Assembly (NCBI GenBank): GCA_963722075.1
Contig: CAVRJM010000001.1
Coordinates: forward strand, 768,001 to 832,000
From: Candidatus Babeliales bacterium
Lineage (GTDB): Bacteria; Babelota; Babeliae; Babelales; JANWKD01
Direction: 5' to 3'
Length of the DNA: 64,000 nt
Shown piece by piece: positions 4,565 to 63,126 of the stretch. Numbering within the stretch: the stretch's first letter is position 1; each line of letters opens with the position of its first letter. The notes beneath the pieces are model-generated. The model was not told where the DNA came from. It did not search any database and saw only the letters and a program-made list of their open reading frames with translations. The position numbers were made by a program, and so were the translations under genes.

Positions 4565-4900
4565 CTATAATAACGGCTTGGTATCTTTGGTAGTACCTAT
4601 CGGCTTATCTTCAGAAGTGCCGCGATGGTAATTATAAGAACCATATCTTTTTCTGGTAGCTCGCTGTAATTGCCATAATCTTATTCTTCTATTACGTTCT
4701 TGCGCTATTGCCATATCAGTAGCAGCTGCACGCGATAAGTCTATTTTTTTCTTCTTTTTTAATTCAGGTGCCACTTCTGGAACATATAACATTCTTCCAC
4801 TTAACCCGCTATATAAATTGGGCCTTTTACTTTCCATAATAGGATATAATTTGAGCGGTATTAGACCTACAAAAATGTAATAATATAATCGATTTTTCAT
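4565..4900 (-). CDS. Hypothetical exported basic protein (signal + xME)
   Basis: Signal-like N-terminus ending PIME; KKKKK stretch; GAGGGG RBS. Confidence 0.6.
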   Translation of the reverse strand: MKNRLYYYIFVGLIPLKLYPIMESKRPNLYSGLSGRMLYVPEVAPELKKKKKIDLSRAAATDMAIAQERNRRIRLWQLQRATRKRYGSYNYHRGTSEDKPIGTTKDTKPLL

Positions 4901-5095
4901 ACAATTAATTCCCCTCTTCTAGTTATTAATATACTGCTATTTTCAACAATAAAACAATAAATAGCCGTTTCTGAGTGAATACGTGGCCCCATAAATTGAT
5001 GGTTTTTAATTTTAAAAATTATTGCTATTAGAATAATATATGGTGTAATATAAGAAGTAGAATAGGAGCAAAATAGTAAAAAAGGAGAATAACGT

Positions 5096-5248
5096 ATGGC
5101 TAAAGACTTAAATCCACCAAAAAAAGGTAATCACCACCCAAAACCTGATAACTATACAGCTCCTCATGTTGGGCAACGTAAAGAAGGCTCAAGCAAAACT
5201 GATGAACGTGAAACTCAAAAACAAAAAGTTAATAAAGATGTTTGTTAA
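5096..5248 (+). CDS. Small basic hydrophilic protein, 50 aa (MAKDLNPPKKGNHHPK...NKDVC); not in ORF track
   Basis: Translated by hand; AAGGAG RBS upstream of ATG 5096; TAA ends at 5248. Confidence 0.7.
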   Translation: MAKDLNPPKKGNHHPKPDNYTAPHVGQRKEGSSKTDERETQKQKVNKDVC

Positions 5249-5316
5249 TTAGTTAAAAAATAATGTAGTGTTTGTAATTATTTTTTTTATTTATTTATTT
5301 TTAAAAGGAGTCAATC

Positions 5317-5517
5317 ATGGCTAAACATGAAAAAAAAGAAGCAGGACATCAAGGTAAAGAAGCAACGCATCACGGTGATACTGCAAAACATGGTCAAGCT
5401 AAACATACCGGTTCACACCAAACACCTCATGCAGGATCTGCAAAACATGGCCACACGAATTCAAAATGGGAAAATACTTCAAAAACTGGTAAGTTAGGTA
5501 AAGAAGAAAAGAAGTAA
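5317..5517 (+). CDS. Small His/Lys-rich protein, 66 aa
   Basis: AAGGAG RBS; repeated AKHG motif. Confidence 0.75.
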   Translation: MAKHEKKEAGHQGKEATHHGDTAKHGQAKHTGSHQTPHAGSAKHGHTNSKWENTSKTGKLGKEEKK

Positions 5518-5596
5518 GAAGAAGCTGCTGCTGGGCAGAAAATTCTAACTTTTACTCATATCTTGAGTATATTATATTTATAATTAGGAGGTTATC

Positions 5597-11040: not shown

Positions 11041-13386
11041 TTATAAAAATGAAATACTGCTCTTCCATAATGGAGTGGATGCTGCTTGATTTGCCATTAA
11101 ATTATTTATTATATGTAATTGAAACCTATTCTCAGGTTTTACTTCAAAAGCAGCTATTTCTGGATGTCCACAAAGCTCTTTATACGTCATATATCCAATA
11201 TTTTCATTTAAAACATTATTATTATTTTCAATAGTTGTTATTTGCTGTAATAATTGTTGCCCTTGTTTATTAAAAGAATAGTTAATATATTTCCGCTTAA
11301 AGAATGTATATATAGAATTTGAAAGATAATACAAAGGACTAATTGCTACCAACAGATACCATGGTTTTTGTTTGAGTAAACCCAATTTATTATTTCTTTG
11401 TTCAGCAAGATTATGTAAGGCCTCATTCAGTCTTCTATGCTCTTTATTATTATTTTCTTCTTTTTGAATATAAGAACCATTTTGTTCTCTCATTTTATAA
11501 TATACCCATCCGTAAAATAGCTGCGGCGTTGTTTTATGGTAGGTGCTTTGGTAATCATGCAAAAGCTGTGATAATGAAGCAGGTGCTATAAATTCATCAT
11601 TATTTTTTTTAACTGGATACGGATCTTTGCTGCTTGAAGCTTCATCATTATTGAGCCGTCTCCCCTTAGAGGATAATCTTTTAGGTGAAGTTTCCGAAAA
11701 TAATATTTCATATTGCTTAATCATCTCAGATGACTCTAAATAAGCTTTCAAATCATTATCACCATCTTCAAGTTCTTTTTTTCCTTCTAATAACTTTAGT
11801 TCAATTATTTTCAGTTTTCGCTTTACTACTTCGAGCTCTTCCTTTATCTCCAGGCGCCTGTTAAAAAGCTTACAATGTTCTCTAAATGGCATTATCGCTC
11901 GTTTTTTTTCTTTTAATTCAATATTATAACCGCGCCCTTCTAATATTCGATCGTCAAACCCAATACAACTTTTTAATTTCTGCTTCAAATCTTTTATTTC
12001 TAGCTTAATAGCACCATAGTTGGCAATTGCTTCGTAATCTATTTTGCTATCTATATTTGTATCTTCTAATAAAAGATTTTTCTGTAAACGCGTATATTCA
12101 TCTTTCAACTTACTTAAACTCATTATTGAATGTTGATCAAACTCCGATTCCTGTTTTTTATTCGGGGTATCTGATAATTTAAATAATCCACTATATATAC
12201 AGTAATAAGGAATATTCCTTTTATATCTTTGGGCTAATTGAGTGAAGAAGGTTTTAAAACTTTCTTCAACTGTACGTTCGGTAGTATTTTGCTTGGCGGC
12301 CGAAAGCTTAAGATTAGTAACCGTTCTTTTTGCCGGCTCTAAACATTTATTTATAAGCCAAATAGTTGGATTAAATATGACAGCTCCGTAATTACTTAAA
12401 AAACCCAGTAACATCGGCTTAGTTTGGGGAGATACTGTTCTTTTTAAATCACCCATGATGCTGGTTAAAGGCTTACCATTTTTTTGGGCTTTTTCGATCT
12501 GACCAATTTTAGCCGGCATAAATTTTCTCGCCACCCATCTCACCCAGGCGTGATCTTCTATAAATTTCAATATGGGTTTTTTAATACCAGGATTTAAAAA
12601 TAAACTGAGAACCCCAGCTAAATCACTTTGATTTGCTGCCTCATCAATACCCTCTGATACCACATTTGCTTTTTCAATCCATGGACTTATTGCTTTCAAT
12701 ATCTGTTTTTCCCCCCTCGAATTCTTTATAGAATTTTCATGACGATAGTATAAAACATTCCAAAGGGTTGCTAAATGCTCGATATAAGGATCATCTTGTG
12801 AGGTCTCAAATTCATAACGTATATCATCCCAATGGCGCGTAGGGTTTGATAATATTACAAAAAAGAAGTCTAATTTTTTTAATAGCTGTAAAACCTCTCT
12901 CGTGTATTTTTTTATAGTATGATTAGCAATTTGATTCACGGTGTATGTTGTATGTAACCTAATCAAATCAAGGGACCCGATCGTATTTAATTGTATAATA
13001 CAATGATCAATCAGCTGTACCATTTTTTCAGCAACTTCACAGTATCCAAATTGATTTAACCATTGATTTGAAAAGAATATCCCCTCCTGTAATGGTTTTT
13101 CTGAATTCTCAATTATTTCTGGATTAAAACCGTGCGATACCACAGCCTTCTTTAAATTTAATAACGCATTTTGTAAAGTGAAACAGTCCTTTTCAACTTG
13201 CACTAAATTATCTTTTTTAACCTGATTATCATGAGTTAAAGAAATAGTAGTTACTCGTTGAAAAATTGCCTCCATGGATTTTACCAAAGGATAAATCAAT
13301 TTATAGCTATCATCAGTATTTTCCATACATACAACAGAGAAAATATGAGCAACTATTACTACCAAATAAAATTTGCGTATATTCAT
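11041..13386 (-). CDS. Large exported coiled-coil hypothetical protein (signal + CME)
   Basis: 781-aa ORF; signal peptide; E/K heptad regions; late hydrophobic segment. Confidence 0.7.
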   Translation of the reverse strand: MNIRKFYLVVIVAHIFSVVCMENTDDSYKLIYPLVKSMEAIFQRVTTISLTHDNQVKKDNLVQVEKDCFTLQNALLNLKKAVVSHGFNPEIIENSEKPLQEGIFFSNQWLNQFGYCEVAEKMVQLIDHCIIQLNTIGSLDLIRLHTTYTVNQIANHTIKKYTREVLQLLKKLDFFFVILSNPTRHWDDIRYEFETSQDDPYIEHLATLWNVLYYRHENSIKNSRGEKQILKAISPWIEKANVVSEGIDEAANQSDLAGVLSLFLNPGIKKPILKFIEDHAWVRWVARKFMPAKIGQIEKAQKNGKPLTSIMGDLKRTVSPQTKPMLLGFLSNYGAVIFNPTIWLINKCLEPAKRTVTNLKLSAAKQNTTERTVEESFKTFFTQLAQRYKRNIPYYCIYSGLFKLSDTPNKKQESEFDQHSIMSLSKLKDEYTRLQKNLLLEDTNIDSKIDYEAIANYGAIKLEIKDLKQKLKSCIGFDDRILEGRGYNIELKEKKRAIMPFREHCKLFNRRLEIKEELEVVKRKLKIIELKLLEGKKELEDGDNDLKAYLESSEMIKQYEILFSETSPKRLSSKGRRLNNDEASSSKDPYPVKKNNDEFIAPASLSQLLHDYQSTYHKTTPQLFYGWVYYKMREQNGSYIQKEENNNKEHRRLNEALHNLAEQRNNKLGLLKQKPWYLLVAISPLYYLSNSIYTFFKRKYINYSFNKQGQQLLQQITTIENNNNVLNENIGYMTYKELCGHPEIAAFEVKPENRFQLHIINNLMANQAASTPLWKSSISFL

Positions 13387-15325: not shown

Positions 15326-15700
15326 TCAATCTTCTTTTTTTTGTTTATTATTTTTTGGCCAATTATTTAATTTAGCAGCTATAATTTTGGTGACATAAGG
15401 CGACCATTGTTTATTAAATTTCTCAGCATTAACCCTTTTTAGACTGTCACGTGATTTTGCCCATTCACAGAATTCTATTTTAACGGAATCATTAAACATA
15501 AACTTTTCATTATTATCAAGATAAAAGATTTTATTGCTATCACATGTTACTATTTTTAAAATCATCCTAAGATTTTCGTTAATTAACTCTAATGATGCAT
15601 ATTCTTCAGATTGAGTAGAATTTTGATTCTGGAGCTTCATAGGAGAAGAGTCTTGGATTATAAAAAAAATAAAAACGTAAATAATATTTTTCATCTTCAT
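15326..15700 (-). CDS. Hypothetical exported protein
   Basis: Signal peptide then PMK. Confidence 0.6.
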   Translation of the reverse strand: MKMKNIIYVFIFFIIQDSSPMKLQNQNSTQSEEYASLELINENLRMILKIVTCDSNKIFYLDNNEKFMFNDSVKIEFCEWAKSRDSLKRVNAEKFNKQWSPYVTKIIAAKLNNWPKNNKQKKED

Positions 15701-17477: not shown

Positions 17478-17583
17478 ATTTTTTAGTTCTGATTTGAACA
17501 AACTTTTCAAATTTTTTCTTGTTTCTTGTGAGATATTTGTAACTTAAACTTACTTATGATTACATTACCATAGAAATTTGTAG

Positions 17584-20602
<3,019 letters not shown>

Positions 20603-23671: not shown

Positions 23672-25657
23672 TTATTCATGCTCCTTTTCCTTCTCCTTTT
23701 CTTTTACTGGTGGTATTTCCTCTGGGATTTCTGCTATCGCTTGCCTACTTTTTTTTCTCTGTAGGCGCTCGCGCCCGCTTGCACCCAAAGACTTTTGCTC
23801 GCCAAGCGGTATTATACGCTTGCGCTTTGAAGGGCGCTTTGCCTGCAATTCTTCTTGAGGAATAGTAAACCCGATAACTCCATGCTCTTCGTTTCTTTCA
23901 AAAAAATAATTCAGTAATGCCAGCGGAATTTGCTGAAAATATTCATATTCCAGATCTGAACGTAAGATAGGTTTATTTTTTGCATCATCTTTAATAGCAC
24001 ACCATAATAACAATAGTGATGGTAAAGGTAATTGTTTAAATACGTTACGCGAATATAGCTCAAATTCAACAACGGTTAAGTAATACCCCTGTCCTTGCCG
24101 TAACGTTATATAAGAAATATGTTTATTGTCTGGAAGTATATATAATGCCGAAATACTAACATCATTAGTTTGAATTTCCTGCAACAACTTACCGCTTTTT
24201 AGATCCCACACCTGTATAGATCGAGGCTTTCCTATCAATTTACTTTTATATTCTTCTGTAATACCCAAATAAAATGATGAAATTAGATACTTATTATCTT
24301 TACTAAAGAAAATTGTTGGTTTGATTAAATAAGGATCCTCATTTGTATAAAAATGTTCAGCTAGAAATCGGTACATTTTTCTTCCGCTAGTAACATCAAA
24401 TATATAAATACTTTTATTAAAATCGACCACTGCAAGTAATGATCCTTCTGAAGAAAATTGCATTAATTCAATTGCTGCTTCAGTCTCATAACCAAACAGT
24501 TCATCATGGTTTTTAATTGTAATCCTATTATGAATATATCTAGCAACTACATCTTCATCTACGGGGCTAACTGCCCCTTTAAACCCCTTTAAAGGGATTG
24601 TTTTTTCAATTATTAGATTGCCTTTTAAAAGATTTTCTATAGTAATTAAGTGAAATCCATCTTTATCTGAAATATATATTTTTTGCCCATATGCAGTTGC
24701 ATAAATCCCATCCGGATTATTCCATCGCACGTGCTGTGGCGGTTCATCAAAATTATTGGTATTAAAAAGCACGATCTCATTAAATAAAAGTATTAGTAAT
24801 AACCGTTTTGATTCAATAAAAAGCGGTTTTTCCAAGCGATAATCAATAATAGACTTTACGTAAGATAATTGCTGCTGCTCAAATTTAAATAAATCAACAA
24901 CACGTCCATTCATTAATGTTAAAAAAACACTATTATCAATATACGCGCAACTTATTTTAGAAAGGTAATATGAACCTGACGCATTTTCTAACCGAAATGA
25001 CACCATGCGCCCTGGTCGCCGCCTTTGAAGATCATGCGTAATCTTAATAAACTGATCTTCATGATGCCATAATTCTTTAGTAACTAACTTACCTAATATA
25101 CTTTTTATATCTGCTGATTTTATTCTATCAATAAAAGCTAATAATTCTGCCTTTTTACCATATGCAACCATATCCTTAATATAATTAAATAAAAGCGGTG
25201 CAATGCTGGTAATAAGCTCCTTATTGCCAAAAAAGTCTGCAGTATTGGCCATATCAAGAATATCATCAATAGGCGCATTGCCTAAAAGCTGTACCACTGC
25301 ATTTTTTAAACTAGAGCCCTGTTTGATTAGTTTGAATATCACTTTCAAATATAAAAGGGACACTTGCGGTACATCATCAACAAATAAAGGGATAGTAGGA
25401 ATTTCTTCAATGCTATCCTCAATAATATCGCGCAAAACCGGGCTACTGTGCTCAATAAAGTTGCGTGGAACAACAATACTTAATAAAAAAACATCTTGAT
25501 CGCCATCTCTTTTAAACAGTTCTAATATTACTTCCTGTTCATTAGTGGGTAATTCTTGAAACTTTTCTTCTACGGGCGGTTCCATTGCTTGTAATACCGT
25601 AATAAAAAAGCACAATAACCACTTTTTATTTTTCATACTATTAATAAAAAACTCCAT
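23672..25657 (-). CDS. Exported Skp1/BTB-like + WD40 beta-propeller protein, paralog 1
   Basis: Signal + AME; SPVLRDIIED..IPL..ANTADFFG; FSSEGSLLAV and IQVWDLKSG; basic/acidic tail. Confidence 0.75.
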   Translation of the reverse strand: MEFFINSMKNKKWLLCFFITVLQAMEPPVEEKFQELPTNEQEVILELFKRDGDQDVFLLSIVVPRNFIEHSSPVLRDIIEDSIEEIPTIPLFVDDVPQVSLLYLKVIFKLIKQGSSLKNAVVQLLGNAPIDDILDMANTADFFGNKELITSIAPLLFNYIKDMVAYGKKAELLAFIDRIKSADIKSILGKLVTKELWHHEDQFIKITHDLQRRRPGRMVSFRLENASGSYYLSKISCAYIDNSVFLTLMNGRVVDLFKFEQQQLSYVKSIIDYRLEKPLFIESKRLLLILLFNEIVLFNTNNFDEPPQHVRWNNPDGIYATAYGQKIYISDKDGFHLITIENLLKGNLIIEKTIPLKGFKGAVSPVDEDVVARYIHNRITIKNHDELFGYETEAAIELMQFSSEGSLLAVVDFNKSIYIFDVTSGRKMYRFLAEHFYTNEDPYLIKPTIFFSKDNKYLISSFYLGITEEYKSKLIGKPRSIQVWDLKSGKLLQEIQTNDVSISALYILPDNKHISYITLRQGQGYYLTVVEFELYSRNVFKQLPLPSLLLLWCAIKDDAKNKPILRSDLEYEYFQQIPLALLNYFFERNEEHGVIGFTIPQEELQAKRPSKRKRIIPLGEQKSLGASGRERLQRKKSRQAIAEIPEEIPPVKEKEKEKEHE

Positions 25658-25725
25658 ACATTCCCTCCTATTCTCTTTCTTCTCGCTCTTTTTCTTTCTC
25701 TTTTGCTGGTGGCATCTCTTCTTCT
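25580..25725. repeat. Direct repeat copy 1, spanning the junction between WD40 paralogs
   Basis: Highly similar to 27585..27730, e.g. AAAAAGCACAATAACCACTTTTTATTTTT and CTTCTCGCTCTTTTTCTTTCTCTTTTG. Confidence 0.75.
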
Positions 25726-27674
25726 GGAACTTCTTCTTCCTCTTCTTCTCTTTCTCTTTCCTTTACCTTTTCTCTTCTTTTTGGTTTTTTTTCAGGTCTA
25801 CCAGAAGGTATTTCTCGTTCCAGTTGCATAGTCTTCCGTTTCCATTTCTGTATAAGAGCTTTTGCTTCTATCGGATTAGGTGATTTAAATCCTATAACTC
25901 CCCGCTCCTCATTTTTTTTAAAAAAATAATTCAATAATTCAGGGGGGAGACGTTCAAAATCTTCAAGATAATCAGGAAAAATATTCACCGGAAGCTTTTT
26001 TTCATCTGATTTAATGGCAAACCATAATAACATTAACGATATGAATGGTATCTTTTTAAATGTTTTACGTGAATATACCTCAAATGGGACTCCCTTAATA
26101 GCATAATAACCCTGTGGATGCCGTGTTACATATGCCATATAGTTACTATTAGGGGAAATAGATAAGGAGTAAATCCTTTTATCTTCAGTTTTAATTTCTT
26201 GGATAAGTGTCTCATTTTCCAAATCCCATATTTCTATAGAGCTATTTGGTATTTCGTCAAGTATATTTAAATTATTAACATCTAAAGAAAATGCTGAAAT
26301 TAGGTAGTTATTATCAGCGCTAAAACAAATGGATCTTAAATTAGTACTACTTATAAACCAAGGCAATCTTAAATTTAGCATGTCGTTTTTGCCAACAAAT
26401 TGTGCAACGATTTCTTCTCGTTTAATATCAAAAATATAAATATTATTATTTGAATTAACCACTGCTAATTTTGTCCCATCAGGAGAAAATCGTATTATTT
26501 CCACAGATCCTTCAATAGGATAACTAAATTGATGTCTATTATCAGGTGCAAAATTTTCAACAATAATATTTCCTTGTTTATAGTAGGCAATTACATCTTC
26601 ATCCACGGGACTTACATCCACTTTGGGCATTCTTAATGGTATTATTTTTTCTGCCGTATCGTTTCCTTCTATAAGATCTTTCACCCTCATTAAATGCAAG
26701 CCTTGGGAATCTGCTATATATATTTTTTTTCCAAATGCAGTTGAATAAAGAGCAGAAACACCACCCCATATGATCTTTTTTCTTAGTGAAAAATCGGTTC
26801 CATCAAAAACGCATATATATATAATAAAATTACTTCTTATGATGATTGCATTTTCTGATTCAATAAAAAGAACTTGCGAAACTTCCTGAGCAATTTTCAT
26901 AGCAAAATTTTGAACTAATTGCGGTCTGGCTTCTTTAAATTGATAAATCTTCATATCTTTAACTGATTTTATAGCTAAAAATAGCGAATTATTAAGATAT
27001 CCAAAATAAGAACTCATTACGTTAGGAATATTATAAGTTGCTATATTTGATACGCCCTGCAGCGCACTCCGCATAATACCAATAAAATGAGTTTCATGAG
27101 TCCACAATTCCTTAGTAACCAATTTGCTTAATTTTTTTTTTACTATTTCCCCTCTTATATTTCTAATGAGTTTGAAGAGCGTACCCCATTGATTGCGAGC
27201 CACCAAATCTTTAATACTGGCATATAATAATAACGTTATTTTATTAATAAGTGATCTATTGCCTAAATAATCTGCAGTGTTAGCCATATCCACGATAACG
27301 TCAGGAGCTGCTTTACCTAGTTTACTCATTACCGCATCTTCTAAAGAGATTCCTTGATTCATTAACGTAAAAACTTTATCAAGATATTGCATTGAAGCCA
27401 AAGAAACATTATTGGTGGATAATGGAATAGATGTTTCACCCAAATCTATATACCCTTTTAAAATATCTGATGAATGCTCAATAAAATCTAAGGGCACCGC
27501 AACGGTCAATATCAACGATTGATTACCGCTCGAATCATCATATAATTCCATTTTCATCTGGCTTGGTAATACCTTTTTAGGAGGCTCCATTGCCTGTAAT
27601 GTACATATGAAAAAGCACAATAACCACTTTTTATTTTTTATACTATTAATAAGAAGCTCCATATATTCCCTCAT
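25668..27674 (-). CDS. Exported Skp1/BTB-like + WD40 protein, paralog 2
   Basis: Signal + AME; ANTADYLG; FSPDGTKLAV and IEIWDL; KEKEKEREERE tail. Confidence 0.75.
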   Translation of the reverse strand: MREYMELLINSIKNKKWLLCFFICTLQAMEPPKKVLPSQMKMELYDDSSGNQSLILTVAVPLDFIEHSSDILKGYIDLGETSIPLSTNNVSLASMQYLDKVFTLMNQGISLEDAVMSKLGKAAPDVIVDMANTADYLGNRSLINKITLLLYASIKDLVARNQWGTLFKLIRNIRGEIVKKKLSKLVTKELWTHETHFIGIMRSALQGVSNIATYNIPNVMSSYFGYLNNSLFLAIKSVKDMKIYQFKEARPQLVQNFAMKIAQEVSQVLFIESENAIIIRSNFIIYICVFDGTDFSLRKKIIWGGVSALYSTAFGKKIYIADSQGLHLMRVKDLIEGNDTAEKIIPLRMPKVDVSPVDEDVIAYYKQGNIIVENFAPDNRHQFSYPIEGSVEIIRFSPDGTKLAVVNSNNNIYIFDIKREEIVAQFVGKNDMLNLRLPWFISSTNLRSICFSADNNYLISAFSLDVNNLNILDEIPNSSIEIWDLENETLIQEIKTEDKRIYSLSISPNSNYMAYVTRHPQGYYAIKGVPFEVYSRKTFKKIPFISLMLLWFAIKSDEKKLPVNIFPDYLEDFERLPPELLNYFFKKNEERGVIGFKSPNPIEAKALIQKWKRKTMQLEREIPSGRPEKKPKRREKVKEREREEEEEEVPEEEMPPAKEKEKEREERE

Positions 27675-27730
27675 TCCCTTTCTTCTCGCTCTTTTTCTTT
27701 CTCTTTTGTTTTTGGCATCTCTTCTTCTTC
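27585..27730. repeat. Direct repeat copy 2, spanning the junction between WD40 paralogs
   Basis: Highly similar to 25580..25725. Confidence 0.75.
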
Positions 27731-35470: not shown

Positions 35471-35770
35471 TTATTCTTCCTTTTTTAATTGTTGATTATA
35501 TTCCATTTCAAGTTTATGCCAAAGCTGTTCTGCATTTCCGCCATTTAAAACCGTATATTCCAAAAAGTCATCATCGAGCGATGTTGCAACAAATTCTTCT
35601 GCCTTAAATTCAAAAATACCGTTAACATTTTTTTTACCCGCTTTATGAAATGCATTTTCAATAGTATCAAATCCATCCTCATCGCTGTAACGACTAATAA
35701 GCAATAAATTTTCCATTGCCGACGTATATAAGGTGGAAAAAAGAATTATAAAAAGAAAAAGATACTTCAT
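35471..35770 (-). CDS. Small exported acidic protein (signal + AME)
   Basis: MKYLFLF start with AGGAG RBS. Confidence 0.65.
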   Translation of the reverse strand: MKYLFLFIILFSTLYTSAMENLLLISRYSDEDGFDTIENAFHKAGKKNVNGIFEFKAEEFVATSLDDDFLEYTVLNGGNAEQLWHKLEMEYNQQLKKEE

Positions 35771-35888: not shown

Positions 35889-36242
35889 TTACCAACGCAT
35901 GTTTCGATAATAATAACCATCTTGAATCACGCTGCGAAAATAATTACGGTGACGATTAGTGAATGAACTGTAGGTAGGATGTATCGTTCTTTGAGTTGGT
36001 TGATATCCATAGGGAACAACTTGTTCATTATCAGGTATTTCTGAATAGCGTTCATATAAAAATGGTATATTGTATACATCTCTATTTTCCGTATCTATGC
36101 GAAGAGCACTTTTTCGCCATGCTGGATTATTATAATCTACAAAAGGATCTCCATCATGCCATTCATTGTCAACGGCATACATTGATGATAATGAGTGACT
36201 TAAGCATATTATGAGAATAAATATAGATATTTTTTTGAACAT
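35889..36242 (-). CDS. Small exported hypothetical protein
   Basis: MFKKIS start with GAGG RBS; signal peptide. Confidence 0.65.
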   Translation of the reverse strand: MFKKISIFILIICLSHSLSSMYAVDNEWHDGDPFVDYNNPAWRKSALRIDTENRDVYNIPFLYERYSEIPDNEQVVPYGYQPTQRTIHPTYSSFTNRHRNYFRSVIQDGYYYRNMRW

Positions 36243-42539: not shown

Positions 42540-43091
42540 ATGAGAAAGTTATCTTTATTATTATTGATGGGAATCTTTGCCAGTAATGTTACTGCGATGC
42601 AAACTCATCGGAATAAATCATGGGTACATTCCATACTGTCCTTGCCTATTTTTTATCCTGCTGCTTTTTCATTAGCAGGCATTGGGTACTGTTTATATAA
42701 GCCGGAAAGCGTTAAAGCGAGTTGGCATTATATAAAGGAAATTCCTTTTCCTATTACATGTGCTTTATTAACAGCTACAAGCTGCTTATTAATTGATCGA
42801 TTACTCCATAAAAAAAATTATGAAGTAGATATAAAAAGAATTAATGCTGAGTTTCAAAATCATAAAGATAAAAGAAAAATTGTCAGCAGACGAACAGAAG
42901 TAATTATTACTGAATTCGCAAATCAACTGGCACGCATGGAATCGCGGTTAAATAGACTTGATAAAACGGTGAGCGAACTTGACCAACTAAATAATCTCTA
43001 TAAAGATACTGCAAAAGCACACCCAGGACTCTTTGAAAACAATATGCAGCCAGGCTGGCAAGAAGCATTACAGACAATCACTCAAAATTAG
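42540..43091 (+). CDS. Exported/membrane protein with two hydrophobic segments and a coiled coil (signal + AMQ)
   Basis: GGAGG RBS; hydropathy pattern. Confidence 0.7.
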   Translation: MRKLSLLLLMGIFASNVTAMQTHRNKSWVHSILSLPIFYPAAFSLAGIGYCLYKPESVKASWHYIKEIPFPITCALLTATSCLLIDRLLHKKNYEVDIKRINAEFQNHKDKRKIVSRRTEVIITEFANQLARMESRLNRLDKTVSELDQLNNLYKDTAKAHPGLFENNMQPGWQEALQTITQN

Positions 43092-44522: not shown

Positions 44523-45062
44523 TTAATTTAATAAGCATCCTTCACTAGGATTTTTATCATAATAAATTGCTTTTTCTGTACTCACCTTTTGCAACTCGTT
44601 CACTTGTTCCACCTTGTTCCTCACCATGGTTAATAAACCCAAACAATATATATGGTTAACCCAATTTTCTTCGGCCATTTTTTTAGCAGAAATATAACCG
44701 GCAAATTCATCACCAATGGTACACATTTTTTTCATAAATGCTTCAATATTATATACGCCTATTTTGCCCTCAGTATTAGGGGTTATTTGTATCCACGGAT
44801 ATTCTTTTTTGCCAGTAGAAATGCTAAGTACTGTTTCAAACTCTATTATTTGCCGATTAACAAATTTTTTTTCTTCTTCATTTAGTTGAGATGACTCAAC
44901 TATCTTTTTATTATTATCAATCACATCAGAAACAATTTGATCTATTTGCGGTACTAATTTCTCTATAAATGGATTAGAGGAAGTTATTCGTTTTTCTTCT
45001 TGCTGCATAGCAACACATGAAATATGAATACATATAAGTGCTATATAAATACGTAGCTTCAT
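44523..45062 (-). CDS. Exported hypothetical protein (signal + AMQ) ending in CaaX-like CLLN
   Basis: Paralog of 45094..45534 (EEKxFxN, STGKK, GxYxI). Confidence 0.7.
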   Translation of the reverse strand: MKLRIYIALICIHISCVAMQQEEKRITSSNPFIEKLVPQIDQIVSDVIDNNKKIVESSQLNEEEKKFVNRQIIEFETVLSISTGKKEYPWIQITPNTEGKIGVYNIEAFMKKMCTIGDEFAGYISAKKMAEENWVNHIYCLGLLTMVRNKVEQVNELQKVSTEKAIYYDKNPSEGCLLN

Positions 45063-45093: not shown

Positions 45094-45534
45094 TTACTCT
45101 TCTGACGCTAATTCATCAATTCTCTTTTTTAAGTCAACTAATACATCCATTGCTTCTTTGTGCTTCTTTAAGTAGCACCTATCAATAGTCCCACATTTTA
45201 CAAAAAAAACTAGCTTCGCTTCTATCTCAGTTGCCAGCTTCACAATAGTATCAATATCGTATATTCCAGCATTTCCACGGTTTGATAGCTCATCACCATT
45301 AAGCTTATGTTTTTTGCCCGTCGACCGGTTTAATACAAATTTGAATTGAGCTGCTTTCCAGTTGAAAAAATCTTTTTCCTCTTTAAATAAATTAGGTAAC
45401 TTAGCGATCAATGCAGTGTTACTCGCCATTTTTTGTATAATATCATCTATCGAATGTTCTTTCTTGGCAGTCATCCCCATGCTTTCTACCCCTATTGCAA
45501 CTACCAAAAATAACAACACTCTATAGAATCTCAT
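45094..45534 (-). CDS. Exported hypothetical protein
   Basis: Signal peptide; paralog of 44523..45062. Confidence 0.7.
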   Translation of the reverse strand: MRFYRVLLFLVVAIGVESMGMTAKKEHSIDDIIQKMASNTALIAKLPNLFKEEKDFFNWKAAQFKFVLNRSTGKKHKLNGDELSNRGNAGIYDIDTIVKLATEIEAKLVFFVKCGTIDRCYLKKHKEAMDVLVDLKKRIDELASEE

Positions 45535-46104: not shown

Positions 46105-46521
46105 ATGAATAGAATGAAAAAAATTTCTTTATTATTTCCAATCTTATGCAGTTTAAACTATGCTACTGCAATGGAAAAAAGCAAAAGAGAAAAACAGCAA
46201 TCAATACAATTGGATCAATCATGGAAAGGCCAGCAAGAGGCAGTAGTAAAATGTATGACTCAATCTGAAATTCGTAAACAAACTTACAAATTTTATGAGC
46301 ATGGAATATTAAAAGCAACTTTTAATGCCCAAAAAAAGTATGTAATAATTTATCCTACTGGCCAAAAAACAAAGAATAGTGATGAAAAAGAAAAATTAAA
46401 GATAAAATATAAATTCTTTCTCCAAATTATTACTGATATGGCATTAAGCAATGATGATAAAAAATGCCTTGAGGATCTTACTCAACTAAATGAAAAACGC
46501 CATTCTTGTTTAGTAAGTTGA
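46105..46521 (+). CDS. Exported WxGK-family protein (signal + AME) ending in CaaX CLVS
   Basis: AAGGAG RBS; WKGQQ..C..FNA shared with the genes at 56316..58230. Confidence 0.72.
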   Translation: MNRMKKISLLFPILCSLNYATAMEKSKREKQQSIQLDQSWKGQQEAVVKCMTQSEIRKQTYKFYEHGILKATFNAQKKYVIIYPTGQKTKNSDEKEKLKIKYKFFLQIITDMALSNDDKKCLEDLTQLNEKRHSCLVS

Positions 46522-52601: not shown

Positions 52602-53423
52602 ATGATGCAACCAATAAGTAATAAATCGTCTTTCATTTATTTATTAGCAACCTGTGTATCAATTCTGCCCACGCTCTTTTCAATGGATAATATAAAACGA
52701 AAGCCTCGTTCTATATCAATGAGTGGATCAGTACTAGATCTTTTTGGCGCACTAGAAATAGATGATAGCCATGAATGTATAACTAAGATGCAAAGAACTA
52801 TACAACCGGATACTGACTTAAATTACCAATCTTCGCAAGGAACTCCCTTAGAGCGAGCTATTGATCTAGAAAAAATTGAAGCAGTTGATTTTCTAATAAG
52901 TAAGGGTAGTAACGCAAACCTTAAAAGCAATTGGTTTAAAGAAACACCACTTCATCGTGCGGCGCGAGCAGGAAATGTTGCGATTATTCAAAAACTTCTT
53001 TGCAAAGTAACAGATCTACAACCCCTTAATAGCGTAGATCAAACACCCCTTCATTTGGCCGTTATATGCTGCCATATAGATGCAGCACGTGAATTTATAA
53101 ATCAAGGGTTGAATGTAAATGCTACTACGAAAAACCTTATGACCCCATTGCATTATGCGTGCATGTTTTCACAAAAACATGCTGAAAGGCACCGGCTCAT
53201 TAATCTATTATTACAAAAGGGAGCATCACTAACTAGTCGTGAAGCACATTATTTTACCCCCTTTGATTTAGCAATCAATGCCGAAAATGTAGAAACAGTA
53301 ACATTTCTTCTGACTAAAATAACCGATCAATCCGTTTTAACAGATTCTTTAAAAATAGCTCAGCAAAAAGGCAACCAAGCCATAATACGCTTATTGCAAG
53401 AAGCTCTCAATAATAAATATTAA
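52602..53423 (+). CDS. Exported ankyrin-repeat protein (signal + SMD)
   Basis: TPLERA, TPLHRA, TPLHLA, TPLHYA and TPFDLA repeats. Confidence 0.9.
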   Translation: MMQPISNKSSFIYLLATCVSILPTLFSMDNIKRKPRSISMSGSVLDLFGALEIDDSHECITKMQRTIQPDTDLNYQSSQGTPLERAIDLEKIEAVDFLISKGSNANLKSNWFKETPLHRAARAGNVAIIQKLLCKVTDLQPLNSVDQTPLHLAVICCHIDAAREFINQGLNVNATTKNLMTPLHYACMFSQKHAERHRLINLLLQKGASLTSREAHYFTPFDLAINAENVETVTFLLTKITDQSVLTDSLKIAQQKGNQAIIRLLQEALNNKY

Positions 53424-55013: not shown

Positions 55014-56331
55014 CTTTTTAAAAAAGCGTACAGATTTTTAAATATAAAATAATCAATTGCTTCTTTAACTGTCTGCGCGCCATATTTTTTCTCTAACAAA
55101 TCTCGGTGCTTTAAAAACTCATTCACGATAGTAGGGCATGGCGTTTTTGGCCATTGTACTTTAGGTGGCTGCCCATGGGATTCCACCATATTTGAGACAA
55201 GATGCTCGCCAACTTTTTGTAGATCTTTAGCTGCTTTATTTATTTTTGCTATTTCTTGTTTACAATAATTAACAACATCTGTTTTCCCAGCTTTTTGCGC
55301 AGCTTTTGCTAACTTAGCAAATTCATCGGATGTTTTTCTTAGATGATCATATTTATTGGCGACTGTTTGGAAAAATTTATGATGCAGTACCATATCAATC
55401 GCACCATCAAGTAATACTTCAAGCATCTGTGGCCCCGTCAATTTAAAAAAATCGCCAAAATGCATAGAAATGCCAGCCAATGCAACGAGTGTCAATCCTT
55501 TATTAGCTATTTGAAAAAGCGGCATATTTTTGCAAGCAATACTCGCCATAAAACAAATAGCGGACATCATTTCTGGGCTATAGAGCTCGCTTAAATCAAC
55601 GCCATCGTCCAGTAACTCCTGCATCTTTTGCATGCGGAATTCAGGTTCTGTCGGTATTATTTCTTCCATGGTTAATTGCTCCCATGGCAGTCTAAAATTT
55701 CCTGCGGTTACGATGGAATTAAGTCTATTAACACCATCAATCAATAAGTGCGTATTATGTGCCAATGACTTTGCTGCAAATGAAAGGAAATGATCAGAAT
55801 ATATAAGCGCATTATTAAACTGTTCGTAAATATTTTGTGCTCTTCTATGAACTACATTACCTGCTGCTTGGGCATACTTTAAGAGCTCTCTTCCAAATTC
55901 AATATATTGCGATACAATCGTATTATCATTCTGTTGGGCATGGTTATAGGCAATTTCGCCATATAAGAATGCTGTGGCAGCCAATTCACGTGCTGCAGTT
56001 GTTTGGGCATCAGACCATTGCTCAAGCGCATCCGCACAGAAAGATTTAATAGCGCGGGTGTTTTCGTCACCATCATCAATTAATTGCTCATCAGCAGTTG
56101 ATTATAATGCAGTTCTAAATCAGCAATATGTACAATTGCACTTAAATTGGCAGATAGTGGAGATGCCTCTATCGAAAGAACAGCTGACAAGGAAGTAAGT
56201 TTTGCATGTAATTGGTTTAAAGAGTTTTCAAGTGCTTGGTTTGGATATACAAATTGGTTACATACCATTAAGAAGCTGATCATGTACCCTCTCATATTCA
56301 TATCCTTTTTGTTAATTAAAATAATATACAA
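54998..56331 (-). pseudogene. Hypothetical exported protein apparently split by one frameshift near 56100 (ORFs 56080..56331 and 54998..55984)
   Basis: Frame of the 328-aa ORF stays open upstream of its TTG to about 56102, overlapping the end of the signal-peptide ORF. Confidence 0.5.
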
Positions 56332-56681
56332 TTACTTCTAACGGTTTTTACACCCTTATGATAAAATAAGAGGGCATTAATATTGCATTTCATAATAGTT
56401 TCAAAGCATTCATAACTTAGTTCAATTGAACTTTTATTTTTAAAGAAAGTAGTAACGGTACGATGGGGATAATCAAATAAGGCGATTAATTCTGCATCAA
56501 TGGTCATAAAAGGTACCGCATCTGGAGAAACTTGTGCTGTTTTCATTAATCGATCAATAAATTGTTCTCTTTGTGCCCACCGTTTTTTTACTTTTTTTAT
56601 TTGTGATGAAGTAAGCGGTTCCATTGAATATGAAAAATTACCGTATATTATTAGAAATATAAAAATAGAAAATGATTTCAT
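56316..56681 (-). CDS. Exported WxGK-family-like protein (signal + SME) ending in CaaX CILF
   Basis: Divergent member (WAQRE..LIALFD). Confidence 0.7.
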   Translation of the reverse strand: MKSFSIFIFLIIYGNFSYSMEPLTSSQIKKVKKRWAQREQFIDRLMKTAQVSPDAVPFMTIDAELIALFDYPHRTVTTFFKNKSSIELSYECFETIMKCNINALLFYHKGVKTVRSNCILF

Positions 56682-56752: not shown

Positions 56753-57196
56753 TTAATTAATAATGCATTCTGTTGCTTTGTCCTCATTTCTCACGCTAAC
56801 GTTGTATCTAATGCCTTTTGAATCAGGCAAAGATCGCATGCTTTCGTGGGTAAGAAGCGCTAATTCTTCTTGAGCGAGCGGTGAAGGAGAAATGGCTTTT
56901 AGAAAAATATCAAATTCTATCTCTCTAAAACTTGTTAATTCAGATCCAAAATAAAATATTACCTTGTTTTGAGATGCGTTAAAACATACCTCTAATTGCT
57001 CATTCTTATAATAAACTGGTAGCTTGGCTCGCTGAGCAGATTCCATACATTCCTTGGCAAGCTCCTGCTTACCATTCCAAAGTGCTAATTGATTCAAAAA
57101 AGATTTATCAATTTCTTCGGCATTCATTGAACGTAACGGTAAAAAACCCGTAAGAATCCCCAATAAGATAATAGTTTTAATATTCGTTGCTTGCAT
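56753..57196 (-). CDS. Exported WxGK-family protein (signal + SMN) ending in CaaX-like CIIN
   Basis: WNGKQ..C..FNA; likely start MQATN after AAGGA. Confidence 0.72.
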   Translation of the reverse strand: MQATNIKTIILLGILTGFLPLRSMNAEEIDKSFLNQLALWNGKQELAKECMESAQRAKLPVYYKNEQLEVCFNASQNKVIFYFGSELTSFREIEFDIFLKAISPSPLAQEELALLTHESMRSLPDSKGIRYNVSVRNEDKATECIIN

Positions 57197-57232: not shown

Positions 57233-57808
57233 TTAGCTAATGAGACACGTTGCTGCTGCCATTACTGCACTTCCATCATTATATAACTTTTCTTTTGGAT
57301 GAGTATCTCCATTCATTAGATTATTAATTTTAGCTGCACAATCTATTTCAAATAATGCTTGATCTACATCTAACTTTAATGATGCAATCGAATTTATAAT
57401 ATCATCTGTTTCATTTGAAATAACATTTAAGAAAGTATTAAATGGTATTTTGTGATAATCTTCTTGATTATGAAGCGAAATAACATTTTCTTCCGCATTA
57501 AAACTAGCCACTAATTCGTTTGAATTATAGGTAAATGGTTCTCCAGTAGCGCGCGCAAAATCCATACAAAGAATAGCAAGTTTAGTTTTACCATTCCATA
57601 CAATTAACTGCTTTAATAAATATGTATCATGCATTATTGGTAAATCACCCATAGCCACAGCCGTTAATGCTGACGTATCCTCATCAGCCGTAACCATCAA
57701 TGATAACATATTCTCGTCTTTTTTTTCTTCCTGCTCCATAGAAAACAAATAGGAATAATTGAATGTACCACACAACACAATAACCATTCTAATCTTTTTA
57801 GCTGCCAT
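57233..57808 (-). CDS. Exported WxGK-family protein (signal + SME) ending in CaaX CLIS
   Basis: WNGKT..C..FNA; start uncertain. Confidence 0.72.
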   Translation of the reverse strand: MAAKKIRMVIVLCGTFNYSYLFSMEQEEKKDENMLSLMVTADEDTSALTAVAMGDLPIMHDTYLLKQLIVWNGKTKLAILCMDFARATGEPFTYNSNELVASFNAEENVISLHNQEDYHKIPFNTFLNVISNETDDIINSIASLKLDVDQALFEIDCAAKINNLMNGDTHPKEKLYNDGSAVMAAATCLIS

Positions 57809-57834: not shown

Positions 57835-58230
57835 TTAATATAAATTACAATTCCATCCGGTTCGTGCAGGCGCTTCAGATTTTTCTTCTTTTTTAGCTTC
57901 TTTCTTTCCAGAAATATCATCGAGAAATTTTAATAAAGACTCATAGCTCATTGTTTCATCACCTAAAGATGAATTTAATCTCACGCTATCTTTATCAAAA
58001 ATAGTTGTAAATTTTTCTTGTTGAAACTCAATGCGTTTACCTGTTTCAATAACCTGGTTGCGATAATCGAGAATAATATCTTGTTTACCTTTCCATGAAT
58101 CGAGTAAAAAAACTAATCGCAATGCCTCAAAATCTACTTGACTCGTACGCCCTTGCTCCTGTTCCATACCAAACATGGAAGCCACGAATAATATTCCCAA
58201 TAGATTTCCTAAAAATAATTTCTTTATCAT
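57835..58230 (-). CDS. Exported WxGK-family protein (signal + GME) ending in CNLY
   Basis: WKGKQ; AAGGAG RBS. Confidence 0.72.
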   Translation of the reverse strand: MIKKLFLGNLLGILFVASMFGMEQEQGRTSQVDFEALRLVFLLDSWKGKQDIILDYRNQVIETGKRIEFQQEKFTTIFDKDSVRLNSSLGDETMSYESLLKFLDDISGKKEAKKEEKSEAPARTGWNCNLY

Positions 58231-59503: not shown

Positions 59504-60157
59504 ATGAAACTATTTTTAGATACGGCAGATATTGAACAGATTAAACAGTGGGATTATTTGATCGATGGAATAACTACCAATCCTTCTCATTTAACAAAAG
59601 CAGCAAAAAACCCCACGGATCAAATTAAGAAAATAATTGCGCTTCTACCCGATAAAGATATCAGTGTAGAAATAACCAAAAAAAATCCCGCTGATGTTTA
59701 TAAGCAAGCGCACGAAATTGCAGCACTTGCTGAAAATATTGTGGTGAAAATTCCCTGTTATCGTGATTACTATCCAATTATAAACAAACTGGTCCAAGAA
59801 AAAATCAACATTAATATCACCCTTGTTTTTACCTTGGTGCAATCATTACTTATGTGCAAAATGGGCGTGCGTTACATTTCTCCTTTTGTTGGCCGTTGGG
59901 ATGATATTGATGTTGAAGGCGCTGATGTATTATATGAAATACGAGAAATGGTCGATCGCTATGGTTTTGAAACTCAGATTTTAGCCGCTTCATTGCGTCA
60001 TGTTCGCCATGTACATCAGGCTATTGAAGCAGGTGCTGATGTTGCAACGGTACCCCCAAAGGTACTAGAACAAATGTCGGAACATATTTTAACTGATAAG
60101 GGAATGGCAATTTTTGACGCGGATTGGAAAAAGTTATCTATTAACACTTTTCCGTAA
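59504..60157 (+). CDS. tal: Transaldolase / fructose-6-phosphate aldolase (small TalC/Fsa type)
   Basis: FLDTAD, GITTNPS, VVKIP, YISPFVGR, ILAASLR. Confidence 0.9.
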   Translation: MKLFLDTADIEQIKQWDYLIDGITTNPSHLTKAAKNPTDQIKKIIALLPDKDISVEITKKNPADVYKQAHEIAALAENIVVKIPCYRDYYPIINKLVQEKININITLVFTLVQSLLMCKMGVRYISPFVGRWDDIDVEGADVLYEIREMVDRYGFETQILAASLRHVRHVHQAIEAGADVATVPPKVLEQMSEHILTDKGMAIFDADWKKLSINTFP

Positions 60158-60160
60158 TCT

Positions 60161-61307
60161 ATGAATTTCAAAAAACTATCCATCGTTTTTGTGACTAATA
60201 ATTATACGCCGTACCAAGGAGGTGTTGTAAGCTCCATTAAACAGCATATACAAGCGCTGCAAGAATTAGGACATACCGTTCATCTTATTACTCTTGATTT
60301 TGTACCTAATATGCAAGATGAACCCCACGTCACTCGTCTTTTTTGTCCTATTCGATTTAACTATAAAACAAATCCCATGGCGGTCCCCTTGCTCCCTAAT
60401 TATTCCGTGCAGAAAATAATTGAACAAATCAATCCTGATATTATTCATGCCCATCATCCTTTTTTACTGGGTAGCGCGGCATTGAAAGCAGCAAAAAAAT
60501 CTACTATTCCTATTGTATTTACGTACCATACGCTCTACCATCATTACCTTCACTATATTCCGCTGCCTCAACCACTCAGTAAAACGTTAGTAGAAAAACA
60601 TGTTGCCTTTTTTTGCAAACAAGTAAATGGCATTATAGCACCCAGCAATGCGGTCAAACAATTAATACAAAAAAAATGTACAACGCCCATACAAGTAATT
60701 CCCAGCGCTATTGCACCATTATTCTTCAATAAAAAAGTTGCCTCAGGTTTAGAAAAATCCTATCAATTTATTAACAGTCAGCAGATTTACCAAAGAAAAA
60801 AATCTTTATTTTTTACTTGATGTTATTGCCCTGCTTAAATCACAACAATTTGTTTTAACATTAGTCGGCTATGGCGCAGAGTATGCTGCTTTAAAAGAAT
60901 ATGCTTATGGGGTAAAAAAACTAAATCCAAACACAGTACGTTTTATTGAACGTCCTTCCACGCATGCATTAGCACAGGCTTATCAACAAGCGGATCTGTT
61001 TCTTTTTTCTTCAACTACTGACACCCAAGGCATTGTTCTTGGTGAGGCAATGGCTTCTGGAACTCCCGTCATTGCACTGGATGGCCCCGGGCAACGCGAT
61101 ATCATTCTTGATGGTATTAATGGTTTTTTAGTTACTAATAAAGAAGAAATGGTGGAAAAAATTAACTCTATAAGCGCTAACCCCTCCTTATTTGGCCAGT
61201 TACAACACCATGCGCATATAACAGCTCAACAATTTCTACCTGAATCTATTATAAATCAGCTCTGTTGCTTCTATCAAAATACGTTAGAAAAAATACCCAT
61301 CCATTGA
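60161..61307 (+). pseudogene. GT4 glycosyltransferase with one frameshift near 60730..60757
   Basis: NYTPYQGGV, IHAHHPF and FTYHT, then in a shifted frame LLTVSRFTKEKN and TDTQGIVLGEAMASGTPV. Confidence 0.8.
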
Positions 61308-61331
61308 CAATTTGCAATTTTTACTTAAACT
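61304..61331 (+). promoter_or_regulatory. Sigma70-type promoter overlapping the upstream stop codon
   Basis: TTGACA-16 nt-TAAACT. Confidence 0.45.
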
Positions 61332-61365
61332 ATACTAATATAATCAGAAAAAAAATGAGGTATTT

Positions 61366-63126
61366 ATGTTTTTCTATAGAAAAGTAAGTTTATGCTTATT
61401 ATCAATTATGGTAATTGGTACTTCCTTCCCTATGATGGAAGGAATAAAAAGTTTTAATCCTATTCAATTATTACAAGACAATAAAACTGCTGCATTACTC
61501 ACCGGATTAGGGGTATTGGGTACTAGTATATTTGGCTATACTACGTATAAATTATGGCAACAAAATAAGCAATTAAATCATACTCTTGCGATCAATAATC
61601 AAAGAGCTCAAGCTTTTACCTTTAATTCAAACTTTGTAACCCACAGCAATGAAATGCGCCAACTAAATAGGCAACGTAATCAAGAAATTAACTACTATCA
61701 ACAATTATTACAAAACGGAAACGAAGAAAAGCGAAAGCTAATGGAAGAGATAGAACGTTTACGAATACTCCAGGCGAATCCATTAACCACATCACCTCAA
61801 CCATCTCCTAAAGCTAAGGGAAAGAAAGATAAGGGGAAAGAAAAAGTTGATGACTCAGCGGATGATGCCCTACCAATCATTGATGATGAACCAACAAGCA
61901 ATATTCCTTTTAGCCATTACATTGAACGTGAAAAAGATAAATTAGAACAAGAATTCGTAGAACTTGATGGCGATTATACCGTAAAACAAGAAAACAATAA
62001 TGCAGTTTCGAGTTCAAATAACGTAGATATGTCCGCTTCTTTAAATATAGAATCCTTACTACCCCAGAAAGCTCAAACAAATTATTTTAAAAATTATGAA
62101 TTATCGGGTACAAAAATAATAAATAATCGCATTAATACAGATAAAACAATTGCATTAATTATCATCCATGGAACATTTGTAAACTCTGATGAATATGGCA
62201 AAATAGAAGACTTTGCAATTTCGCAATCATTATTAGAATTTGCTAAAAAATTGGCCCGTGATCAAGAATGCCATGTTGCTTTTACTACATTTAATTGGTC
62301 AGGAGAGCTTAATAGTGCCCACCGTAAAGACGCCGGTTCAGTATTAGCTCAATTTATTAGAGATCATGGTAGTAAAGATCAAGATATTTGGACTATCGAA
62401 CACAGCCATGGTGCAAACGTATTATATCACACATCTGAAGAATTGAGATCATGGGGACCTATTAAATACGCCATTAATATTGCTTCGCCCTTAATTGATT
62501 GCGCAGAGTCTTCTGACCCGATAAAAACAACCCCACGAACTGTTAAAAATGCAGCTAACACGTTGAATATTGAAAATCTCATAAATATATATTCTACCGG
62601 TGACTTAACACAACTTATTGCCTCATGTCAAACCGCATTATTTAAAGGTTCTTATAGCAGTGAACGGCGTGCCCCTTTTATTATGAACACAAATCGTAAA
62701 GTGTGGAATATTCGGTTGCAAGATAATGGCCATGAACTCAATCATCTTTCTATAATAATACCTGCTATCAGGGTATTACCCAAATTATTACCGGTTATTA
62801 AAAGACAATTTGCCCATATCCATGATTTAGATGTAAATAATGATCATCAGCGGCAAGAGCCACAGGTAGTAATTAGGAATCTTATTAGATCTGAAGGCTG
62901 CACCCATGAAGAAATTATTAAAAGTTTAGAATATAGCGATGAAAGCGCACTACAATTTGAAGAAACATATAACAGAAATATTCGTGATAAAGTACAATAC
63001 ACCGTCGTCAAAGTTGTATCGGAAACCAAGGATGCCCTAGCATGTTTAACAGGAAAATTCTGCAGATTGCCATCGGTTAAAGCACTTCTTAGCTATTTCT
63101 CAGAAGAGACTCAGGTGAATAGTTGA
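61366..63126 (+). CDS. Exported protein: TM segment + coiled coil + alpha/beta-hydrolase domain
   Basis: IHGT, WSG and EHSHGAN as in 8272..9177; N-terminal module shared with 63190..63780. Confidence 0.72.
   Translation: MFFYRKVSLCLLSIMVIGTSFPMMEGIKSFNPIQLLQDNKTAALLTGLGVLGTSIFGYTTYKLWQQNKQLNHTLAINNQRAQAFTFNSNFVTHSNEMRQLNRQRNQEINYYQQLLQNGNEEKRKLMEEIERLRILQANPLTTSPQPSPKAKGKKDKGKEKVDDSADDALPIIDDEPTSNIPFSHYIEREKDKLEQEFVELDGDYTVKQENNNAVSSSNNVDMSASLNIESLLPQKAQTNYFKNYELSGTKIINNRINTDKTIALIIIHGTFVNSDEYGKIEDFAISQSLLEFAKKLARDQECHVAFTTFNWSGELNSAHRKDAGSVLAQFIRDHGSKDQDIWTIEHSHGANVLYHTSEELRSWGPIKYAINIASPLIDCAESSDPIKTTPRTVKNAANTLNIENLINIYSTGDLTQLIASCQTALFKGSYSSERRAPFIMNTNRKVWNIRLQDNGHELNHLSIIIPAIRVLPKLLPVIKRQFAHIHDLDVNNDHQRQEPQVVIRNLIRSEGCTHEEIIKSLEYSDESALQFEETYNRNIRDKVQYTVVKVVSETKDALACLTGKFCRLPSVKALLSYFSEETQVNS

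Follow-up and report, generated by a model that had tools for sequence, protein, structure and literature searches.

The described system closest to the one reported here is the Q-rule of Bacteroidetes, in which Gln stands at position +1 of signal peptidase I substrates of all compartments and is cyclised by the bacterium's own glutaminyl cyclase (PMC5837995; this and the other papers are cited for the passages that bear on the point). A stretch of 64,000 nucleotides from a Candidatus Babeliales bacterium (assembly GCA_963722075.1, contig CAVRJM010000001.1, positions 768,001 to 832,000), called the window below, encodes about 20 proteins in which a hydrophobic leader is followed directly by Met and then mostly by Glu, Gln, Asp or Asn. 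As in the Q-rule, a lineage-specific fixed residue would be exposed by signal peptidase I and a protection of the new N-terminus may be proposed, but the Met rule differs in residue, chemistry and compartment dependence, since it combines Met with a preference at +2 and marks only host-facing cargo. Four GNAT proteins with leaders were seen, although no search aimed at a modifying enzyme was made. Judged from the sequences, the Met rule is real, selected and lineage-wide on host-facing secreted proteins, the cleavage itself being predicted.

In Plasmodium, PEXEL proteins are cut behind RxL, leaving xE/Q/D at the new end. There, too, proteins destined for the host cytosol acquire by cleavage a new end with E/Q/D at +2, but here RxL, plasmepsin V and PTEX are missing, the site is of the bacterial AxA type and +1 is fixed as Met; position -3 is Leu, Ile or Ser, and no enrichment of Arg was found at -4 to -1. 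The enriched dipeptides at our predicted termini equal the substrate set of the eukaryotic acetyltransferase NatB (Met-Asp, -Asn, -Glu, -Gln), although NatB works on ribosome-bound chains and the termini considered here would arise by proteolysis in the bacterial periplasm. Phytoplasma effectors of the SAP54/phyllogen family are Sec-exported and have a small residue followed by Met-Asp or Met-Asn at the signal end (supplement of PMC8026896), and are thus likewise host-cytosolic effectors with Met-Asp/Asn behind a signal peptide. Among the sequences considered this concerns one family only, whereas 24 SAP11 homologues start with Ala, Ser or Thr, mostly followed by Pro, and the searched text of that paper does not mention methionine (PMC8026896). 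Ordinary Sec/signal peptidase I peptides share the n-, h- and c-regions with small residues at -3/-1, but +1 Met is rare in the controls given below. The rule is not described in the literature found on Dependentiae/Babeliales secretion, the N-end rule, NatB and effectors, subscription journals and supplements lying outside this scope, and the word 'methionine' does not occur in the main texts of PMC4378268 or PMC4776705.

Methionine at the predicted +1 position

The genome holding the window comprises 1.47 Mb in 4 contigs. In a quick phylogeny of transketolase alone it is sister to a Ca. Babeliales record (support 99), within a 35-row clade that holds all Ca. Babeliales and Dependentiae rows (support 98). 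Known members of this group are intracellular parasites of protists (PMC12172432). Gene calling gave 1228 genes, 584 of them with a signal-peptide-like start and 497 of these without further membrane helices. Signal peptides were called by a heuristic instead of SignalP, which overlooks leaders without Lys/Arg and some carriers and gives false positives, 18 of which were taken out as known cytoplasmic families. The strict Met class, with Met at the predicted +1 followed by E, D, Q, N or K, has 164 members, and about a third of the predicted exported proteins belong to the Met class. The strict +2 filter was introduced after the first domain results had been seen, and strict and loose figures are therefore both given.

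The position of the cut was predicted by two procedures blind to +1. Over 381 scored sites, a matrix trained on the upstream positions of 193 Met-free signal peptides found Met 84 times at +1 and never at -1, against a downstream Met background of 1.7%, and many of its misses were cuts predicted 1-4 residues upstream of a Met. The other procedure, which took leaders with a single AxA-type site (131 sites from 498 proteins), found Met at +1 in 31/131 and Gln in 10/131, which is not the Q-rule pattern of Gln in most substrates. Both thus bear out the earlier note's assumption that signal peptidase would cut directly before the Met. M-[EDQN] occurs 205 times at residues 13-41, with a peak at 19-23, versus 45 times at residues 46-74. 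The predicted cut of the Met class follows [L/I/S]-x-[A/G/S], with Ala, Ser or Gly at -1 in 137/205 sites of the unfiltered set, and the -3/-1 profiles of Met and non-Met classes are alike. Gly, Cys and Pro also occur at -1 in the Met class. Pro at this position is unusual for signal peptidase I; it is found in about 5% of the Met sites (e.g., window 15326 and 61366, L012:6020, L016:5298).

The leaders have a basic n-region, a hydrophobic h-region and their own translation start according to the heuristic caller. They are unrelated to each other, with 159 leaders forming 147 clusters at 70% DNA identity (median DNA identity 46%), and a search with a leader in the ESM Atlas gave no match. Paralogy as a cause is ruled out, as the earlier note had held, because the 164 strict carriers fall into 140 BLAST families.

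Over the 196 loose Met sites, position +2 is Glu in 80, Gln in 29, Asn in 19, Asp in 17 and Lys in 13. E/D/Q/N thus account for 145/196 against a background of 23%, small residues for 14/196 against 35% and bulky hydrophobic residues for 19/196 against 25%; enrichment is limited to exactly E, Q, N and D, with Lys at background. At the blind single sites, E/D/Q/N follow Met in 27/31 and other +1 residues in 28/100 (p=6e-9), small residues in 2/31 versus 34/100 and bulky hydrophobic ones in 1/31 versus 26/100. The same rule applied to relatives gave Met at +1 in 30/128 and E/D/Q/N at +2 in 24/30 after Met versus 33/98 after other residues. The preference at +2 is therefore specific to the Met class, and a general preference of the peptidase for acidic +2 residues is ruled out. 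At +4, Pro/Ser are common in the Met class.

Cargo, export route and distribution

Pfam scans covered 448 proteins genome-wide (first 420 residues, E<=1e-6), with window proteins scanned separately and 22 proteins left unscanned; Met and non-Met classes were set before the genome-wide scans, and functional groups were assigned by ourselves. Proteins with eukaryote-like domains (ankyrin, WD40, Skp1-POZ, C2H2 zinc finger, DnaJ) have the Met site in 29/39 cases by the strict and 30/39 by the loose definition, versus 0/34 and 4/34 of the envelope proteins (BamD, DegP, OmpH, TolB, penicillin-binding proteins, secretins, binding proteins and others; Fisher test, strict p=4e-12, loose p=2e-8). The earlier note had named an equal frequency of +1 Met in ordinary periplasmic proteins as fatal to its idea; it is clearly rarer there. 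Among proteins without a Pfam match the strict site occurs in 114/328.

C-terminal CaaX boxes can be read by host prenyltransferases, as is the case for Legionella effectors. By a pattern of our own they occur in 9/224 Met-class proteins, which include a pair of near-identical copies, 1/360 other exported (p=0.001) and 3/644 remaining proteins, one of the latter three being window protein 57233, a carrier that had been overlooked. The corresponding counts in relatives are 3/169, 0/438 and 1/908. No passage on prenylation of CaaX effectors was found in the searched part of the review PMC12960579. Six small secreted orphans of the window with CaaX ends (44523, 46105, 56316, 56753, 57233, 57835), four of them in tandem, are candidate host-prenylated effectors. 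Tails of the Met class are more polar (0.66 vs 0.57), Glu is the C-terminal residue in 18% versus 15/272 of the others (p=5e-5), and charge is higher over the last 10 residues. Words resembling nuclear localisation signals occur in 32/159 Met-class proteins versus 31/272 others; in four carriers, two Skp1-POZ/WD40 and two ankyrin proteins (L050:2308, L050:4474, L022:112, L022:2368), such a basic stretch follows the Met directly. The parity of Cys does not differ between Met and non-Met classes.

Further candidate effectors are secreted ubiquitin hydrolase, SET, DOT1, MavL-like, C2H2 zinc-finger and J-domain proteins (L059:1197, L066:14660, L024:64, L047:11111, L012:6020, L012:10209, L017:91-5330). 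Moreover, a second shared module behind the signal peptide, a leucine-zipper-like amphipathic helix of 22 residues often followed by a Pro-rich linker, occurs in 19 proteins genome-wide. Its carriers are unrelated to each other (EEP nuclease, MavL-like, orphans) and mostly lack the Met, and one copy is C-terminal, on a Macro protein; in the window the module lies in 37778-38656 and, by eye, in 36816-37493 and 56080-56331. The sampled relatives gave no match to it. It might possibly be a second tag or an oligomerisation module.

The only secretion machine found in this genome is a type II system. GspC and two GspD secretins were identified by Pfam, and the genes beside them look like platform and pseudopilin genes by eye, while a search of this genome for VirB4 and VipB gave no match. 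Two or more secretin matches are present in 31/31 genomes. A third, shorter secretin occurs in 13/31 (G005, G007, G008, G010, G015, G017, G018, G021, G023, G025, G027, G028, G030) and is lacking in most Met-rich genomes; it does not indicate a type III system, since the marker FHIPEP was found in 0/31. These findings agree with published accounts of Babela, where 79/126 ankyrin proteins have signal peptides and type II is the sole system (PMC4378268), of two gspD copies (PMC4776705), and of Chromulinavorax, with signal peptides on 44% of proteins and cytoplasmic replication (PMC6561590). The host cytosol has been reported to be reachable from the vacuole for type II substrates (PMC5478897).

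As far as the sampled sequences tell, the Met rule occurs widely but unevenly within the order and is missing from the controls. Relatives were sampled at 40-100 kb each, so samples are small, and kin are not independent. Strict sites among exported proteins numbered 7/14 in G001, 7/22 in G003, 13/33 in G004, 3/22 in G014, 11/39 in G020, 5/33 in G022, 2/17 in G008 and 2/21 in G009, and three of four main subclades carry the rule. In 41 loci of a named collection grouped as Babeliales-like, strict sites numbered 56/237; two of these loci fall outside the transketolase clade, and neither has a site. Met at +1 was found in 0/29 in 18 outgroup loci and in 0/12 of an E. coli control.

Carriers in the window

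The earlier note's count of about 20 window proteins holds, with 17 main and 3 weaker cases, all in frame behind a hydrophobic leader (Table 1; the single positions used in the text for window proteins, as in that note, are the low ends of the open reading frames). Of the protein types it listed, WD40 (4 proteins) and ankyrin (1) were recovered by Pfam and CaaX ends in 6 window proteins, whereas its label 'hydrolase' for 49358 could not be confirmed, with no Pfam family and no homologue in 1130 candidates. Two motifs are imperfect: in 4565 Y-P-I precedes the Met, and a cut after the Pro would place Met at +2; in 61366 the junction reads P-M-M-E.

Table 1. Window proteins with Met behind a predicted signal peptide (positions within the window)
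Coordinates	Strand	Protein	Junction	Met codon	Remarks
4565..4900	-	111-aa orphan	Met-Glu	4835-4837	imperfect -3/-1
11041..13386	-	781-aa orphan	Met-Glu	13324-13326	
15326..15700	-	124-aa orphan	Met-Lys	15638-15640	Pro at -1
23672..25657	-	WD40-type protein	Met-Glu	25583-25585	Pfam
25668..27674	-	WD40 protein	Met-Glu	27588-27590	Pfam
27671..29722	-	WD40-type protein	Met-Glu	29669-29671	Pfam
30926..32974	-	WD40 protein	Met-Glu	32921-32923	Pfam
35471..35770	-	small orphan	Met-Glu	35714-35716	
35889..36242	-	small orphan	Met-Tyr	36180-36182	weak case
42540..43091	+	183-aa orphan	Met-Gln	42597-42599	
44523..45062	-	179-aa orphan	Met-Gln	45006-45008	C-terminal CaaX
45094..45534	-	146-aa orphan	Met-Gly	45478-45480	weak case
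46105..46521	+	138-aa orphan	Met-Glu	46171-46173	C-terminal CaaX; near-identical copy on contig C3
49358..50314	-	318-aa orphan	Met-Glu	50258-50260	
52602..53423	+	ankyrin-repeat protein	Met-Asp	52683-52685	Pfam
56316..56681	-	121-aa orphan	Met-Glu	56622-56624	C-terminal CaaX
56753..57196	-	147-aa orphan	Met-Asn	57125-57127	C-terminal CaaX
57233..57808	-	191-aa orphan	Met-Glu	57737-57739	C-terminal CaaX
57835..58230	-	131-aa orphan	Met-Glu	58165-58167	C-terminal CaaX-like end
61366..63126	+	586-aa orphan	Pro-Met-Met-Glu	61435-61437 (second Met)	

The four WD40 proteins finish in runs of Glu/Lys/Arg. Contig C3 (L075, L076) repeats the window genes 46105, 52602 and 53674 nearly or partly, by duplication or as a strain variant. 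An rRNA operon and two tRNAs lie at 17362-22652. The genes at 46894-49331 (leucyl-tRNA-synthetase-like, going by its motifs) and 60161-61307 (glycosyltransferase-like) seem to be split over several open reading frames, probably by assembly indels.

Possible functions of the Met-Glu end

The Met might be an alternative or true start for cytoplasmic isoforms, which the earlier note had recognised as a possible objection, or part of a Kozak-like nucleotide signal, and ATG followed by G with an Ala codon before it does resemble a Kozak context. However, Shine-Dalgarno-like words precede the leader ATG in 86/158 carriers and the Met codon in 3/158, equal to the 3/272 at non-Met sites, and codon choice around the site shows no nucleotide signal: there is no clear excess of GTG (3/15 Val codons), TTG makes up 8/45 Leu codons, and the choice of Ser codon at -1 is unbiased (13/28 vs 21/61). 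An internal start or Kozak signal is thereby in effect ruled out. It could also be that the motif only tunes cleavage, Met at P1' being favoured by a signal peptidase, possibly by one of two paralogues. The two S26 peptidase genes of this genome and the Gly, Cys and Pro at -1 would fit such a preference; the likeness of the -3/-1 profiles in both classes speaks against it, it leaves the cargo sorting unexplained, and a dedicated second peptidase is not supported by the number of S26 genes, which varies independently of the rule (sites occur in G014, G008 and G009, with a single match each; G005, G007 and G021 have two, with no site seen), so that we rate this explanation as highly improbable. 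Somewhat less remote, but still improbable, is that the Met is a neutral relic of leaders added upstream of existing genes, or of a leader-plus-Met cassette spread by recombination. In two carriers, of the PEBP and LigD_N families, the Met sits where the free-standing family presumably starts, and tandem paralogues have leader and first residues in common while the remainder diverges. Yet cytoplasmic genes mostly start with M-K, M-N, M-I, M-A or M-S, and M-E makes up 5% of their starts compared with 41-51% here; the pattern recurs in three major subclades, where drift would erode it; and the diversity of the leaders, with nearly as many clusters as members, rules out a mobile cassette as the main cause.

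A more serious competitor, which we consider possible though doubtful, is that the bacterium itself reads the new Met-Glu/Gln end as a tag for a second sorting step, in analogy to the cleaved PEXEL end; the reading could take place in the type II system, by a chaperone of the periplasm, during the loading of vesicles or while a vacuole is crossed. Such a tag would fit the cargo sorting equally well, the genome has a complete set of type II genes, two GspD secretins among them, while no type III, VirB4 or VipB marker was found, the marked excess of Glu over Gln, Asn and Asp and the frequent Pro/Ser at +4 resemble what a binding pocket would select, and the leucine-zipper-like module suggests that several tags may coexist. 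On the other hand, genomes without a Met class in the sample and with other ankyrin starts possess the two secretins just the same, host-directed enzymes and some ankyrin proteins of this genome are untagged, and no candidate receptor was identified; moreover, the +2 set equals the eukaryotic class of retained Met, which a bacterial receptor has no reason to match.

In our view the Met-E/Q/D/N end, predicted to be exposed by signal peptidase I, is likely (at roughly 55%) a host camouflage against cytosolic degradation. Translation would begin at the leader ATG, as the Shine-Dalgarno pattern suggests, Sec export and the predicted cut would follow, and the protein would probably leave by the type II system; arrival in the host cytosol is suggested by the CaaX boxes and the ankyrin, WD40, Skp1-POZ, C2H2 and J domains. 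There, most +1 residues would act as N-degrons. Arg/N-degrons comprise R, K, H, L, F, Y, W, I, Met before bulky hydrophobic residues, D, E, N and Q, while G, A, S, T, C and Pro are degrons of other branches, and methionine aminopeptidase takes off Met before residues no larger than Val (PMC11441550). UBR ligases recognise Met-hydrophobic and Met-basic starts when these are unacetylated (PMC11735805); the aminopeptidase and Met-hydrophobic rules are given alike in PMC8037982. By elimination of all other starts under these rules, Met-E/D/Q/N may be the safest start for a pre-made protein that enters the cytosol and has missed ribosome-coupled acetylation, and +1, +2 and cargo would be explained without need of NatB. 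Indeed, NatB acts co-translationally on Met-D/N/E/Q (PMC11735805; co-translational also in PMC8874572), which the earlier note had raised as a caveat. This caveat is largely removed because the class would be safe even unacetylated: no physical interaction of unacetylated NatB-type ends with a ligase has been identified, although cases are cited where they may be read by UBR1/UBR4 (PMC11735805). Post-translational acetylation by NatB may add protection without being required. We also count for camouflage the polar tails of the Met class, which fit what an exposed degron would look like, the basic stretch resembling a nuclear localisation signal at the start of four carriers, and the retention of Met behind unrelated leaders. 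Of the two interpretations offered in the earlier note, camouflage is strengthened by the sorting of cargo, the link to CaaX ends and the preference at +2, while the export tag has lost ground.

Several observations weigh against camouflage. Other enzymes carry the strict Met site in only 4/56 cases; host-directed-looking ones (UCH, SET, DOT1, MavL-like, Macro) lack the Met, several of them being predicted to begin with degron residues, and 9/24 ankyrin proteins are without the strict site. No strict site was found in 9/17 sampled relatives at 40-80 kb each (103 proteins; G005, G006, G007, G010, G016, G018, G021, G024, G027), G018 having Met sites near ankyrin genes all the same, and several Met-poor relatives export ankyrins with other +1 residues though they likewise face eukaryotic hosts. 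Convergence, which we had expected in Holosporales/Rickettsiales-like DNA, was not seen in 56 small loci related to a Paracaedibacter transporter (1/50). A Paracaedibacter plasmid encodes no signal-peptide protein, and a translocase search over 401 genomes, aimed at Holosporales/Rickettsiales-like genomes, gave no match. The blind sets show no significant depletion of basic residues at +2 (1/31 vs 12/100; relatives 5/30 vs 9/98), and the Glu excess (80/196) exceeds what degron avoidance alone needs. Finally, the degron rules come from work on yeast, animals and plants and may differ in the host of this genome.

The wider proposition, to which we give an even chance, is an N-terminal disguise in the Babeliales: hundreds of unrelated effectors would carry a second, eukaryote-style Met-Glu 'initiator' and be host-like at both ends, with an N-degron-proof, possibly NatB-acetylated start and a host-prenylated CaaX end. 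If true, this would be the first bacterial effector signal selected by the host N-degron code, and it would provide a simple effector predictor for an almost uncultured phylum. With the rule separating host-facing from envelope cargo, some 160 proteins of this genome can be listed as candidate effectors, and 114 of these have no Pfam match. The rule bears on how Dependentiae, with only Sec and type II, deliver and protect their many ankyrin and orphan proteins, and makes it testable whether the secreted N-termini of an intracellular bacterium have been adapted to the N-degron code of its host.

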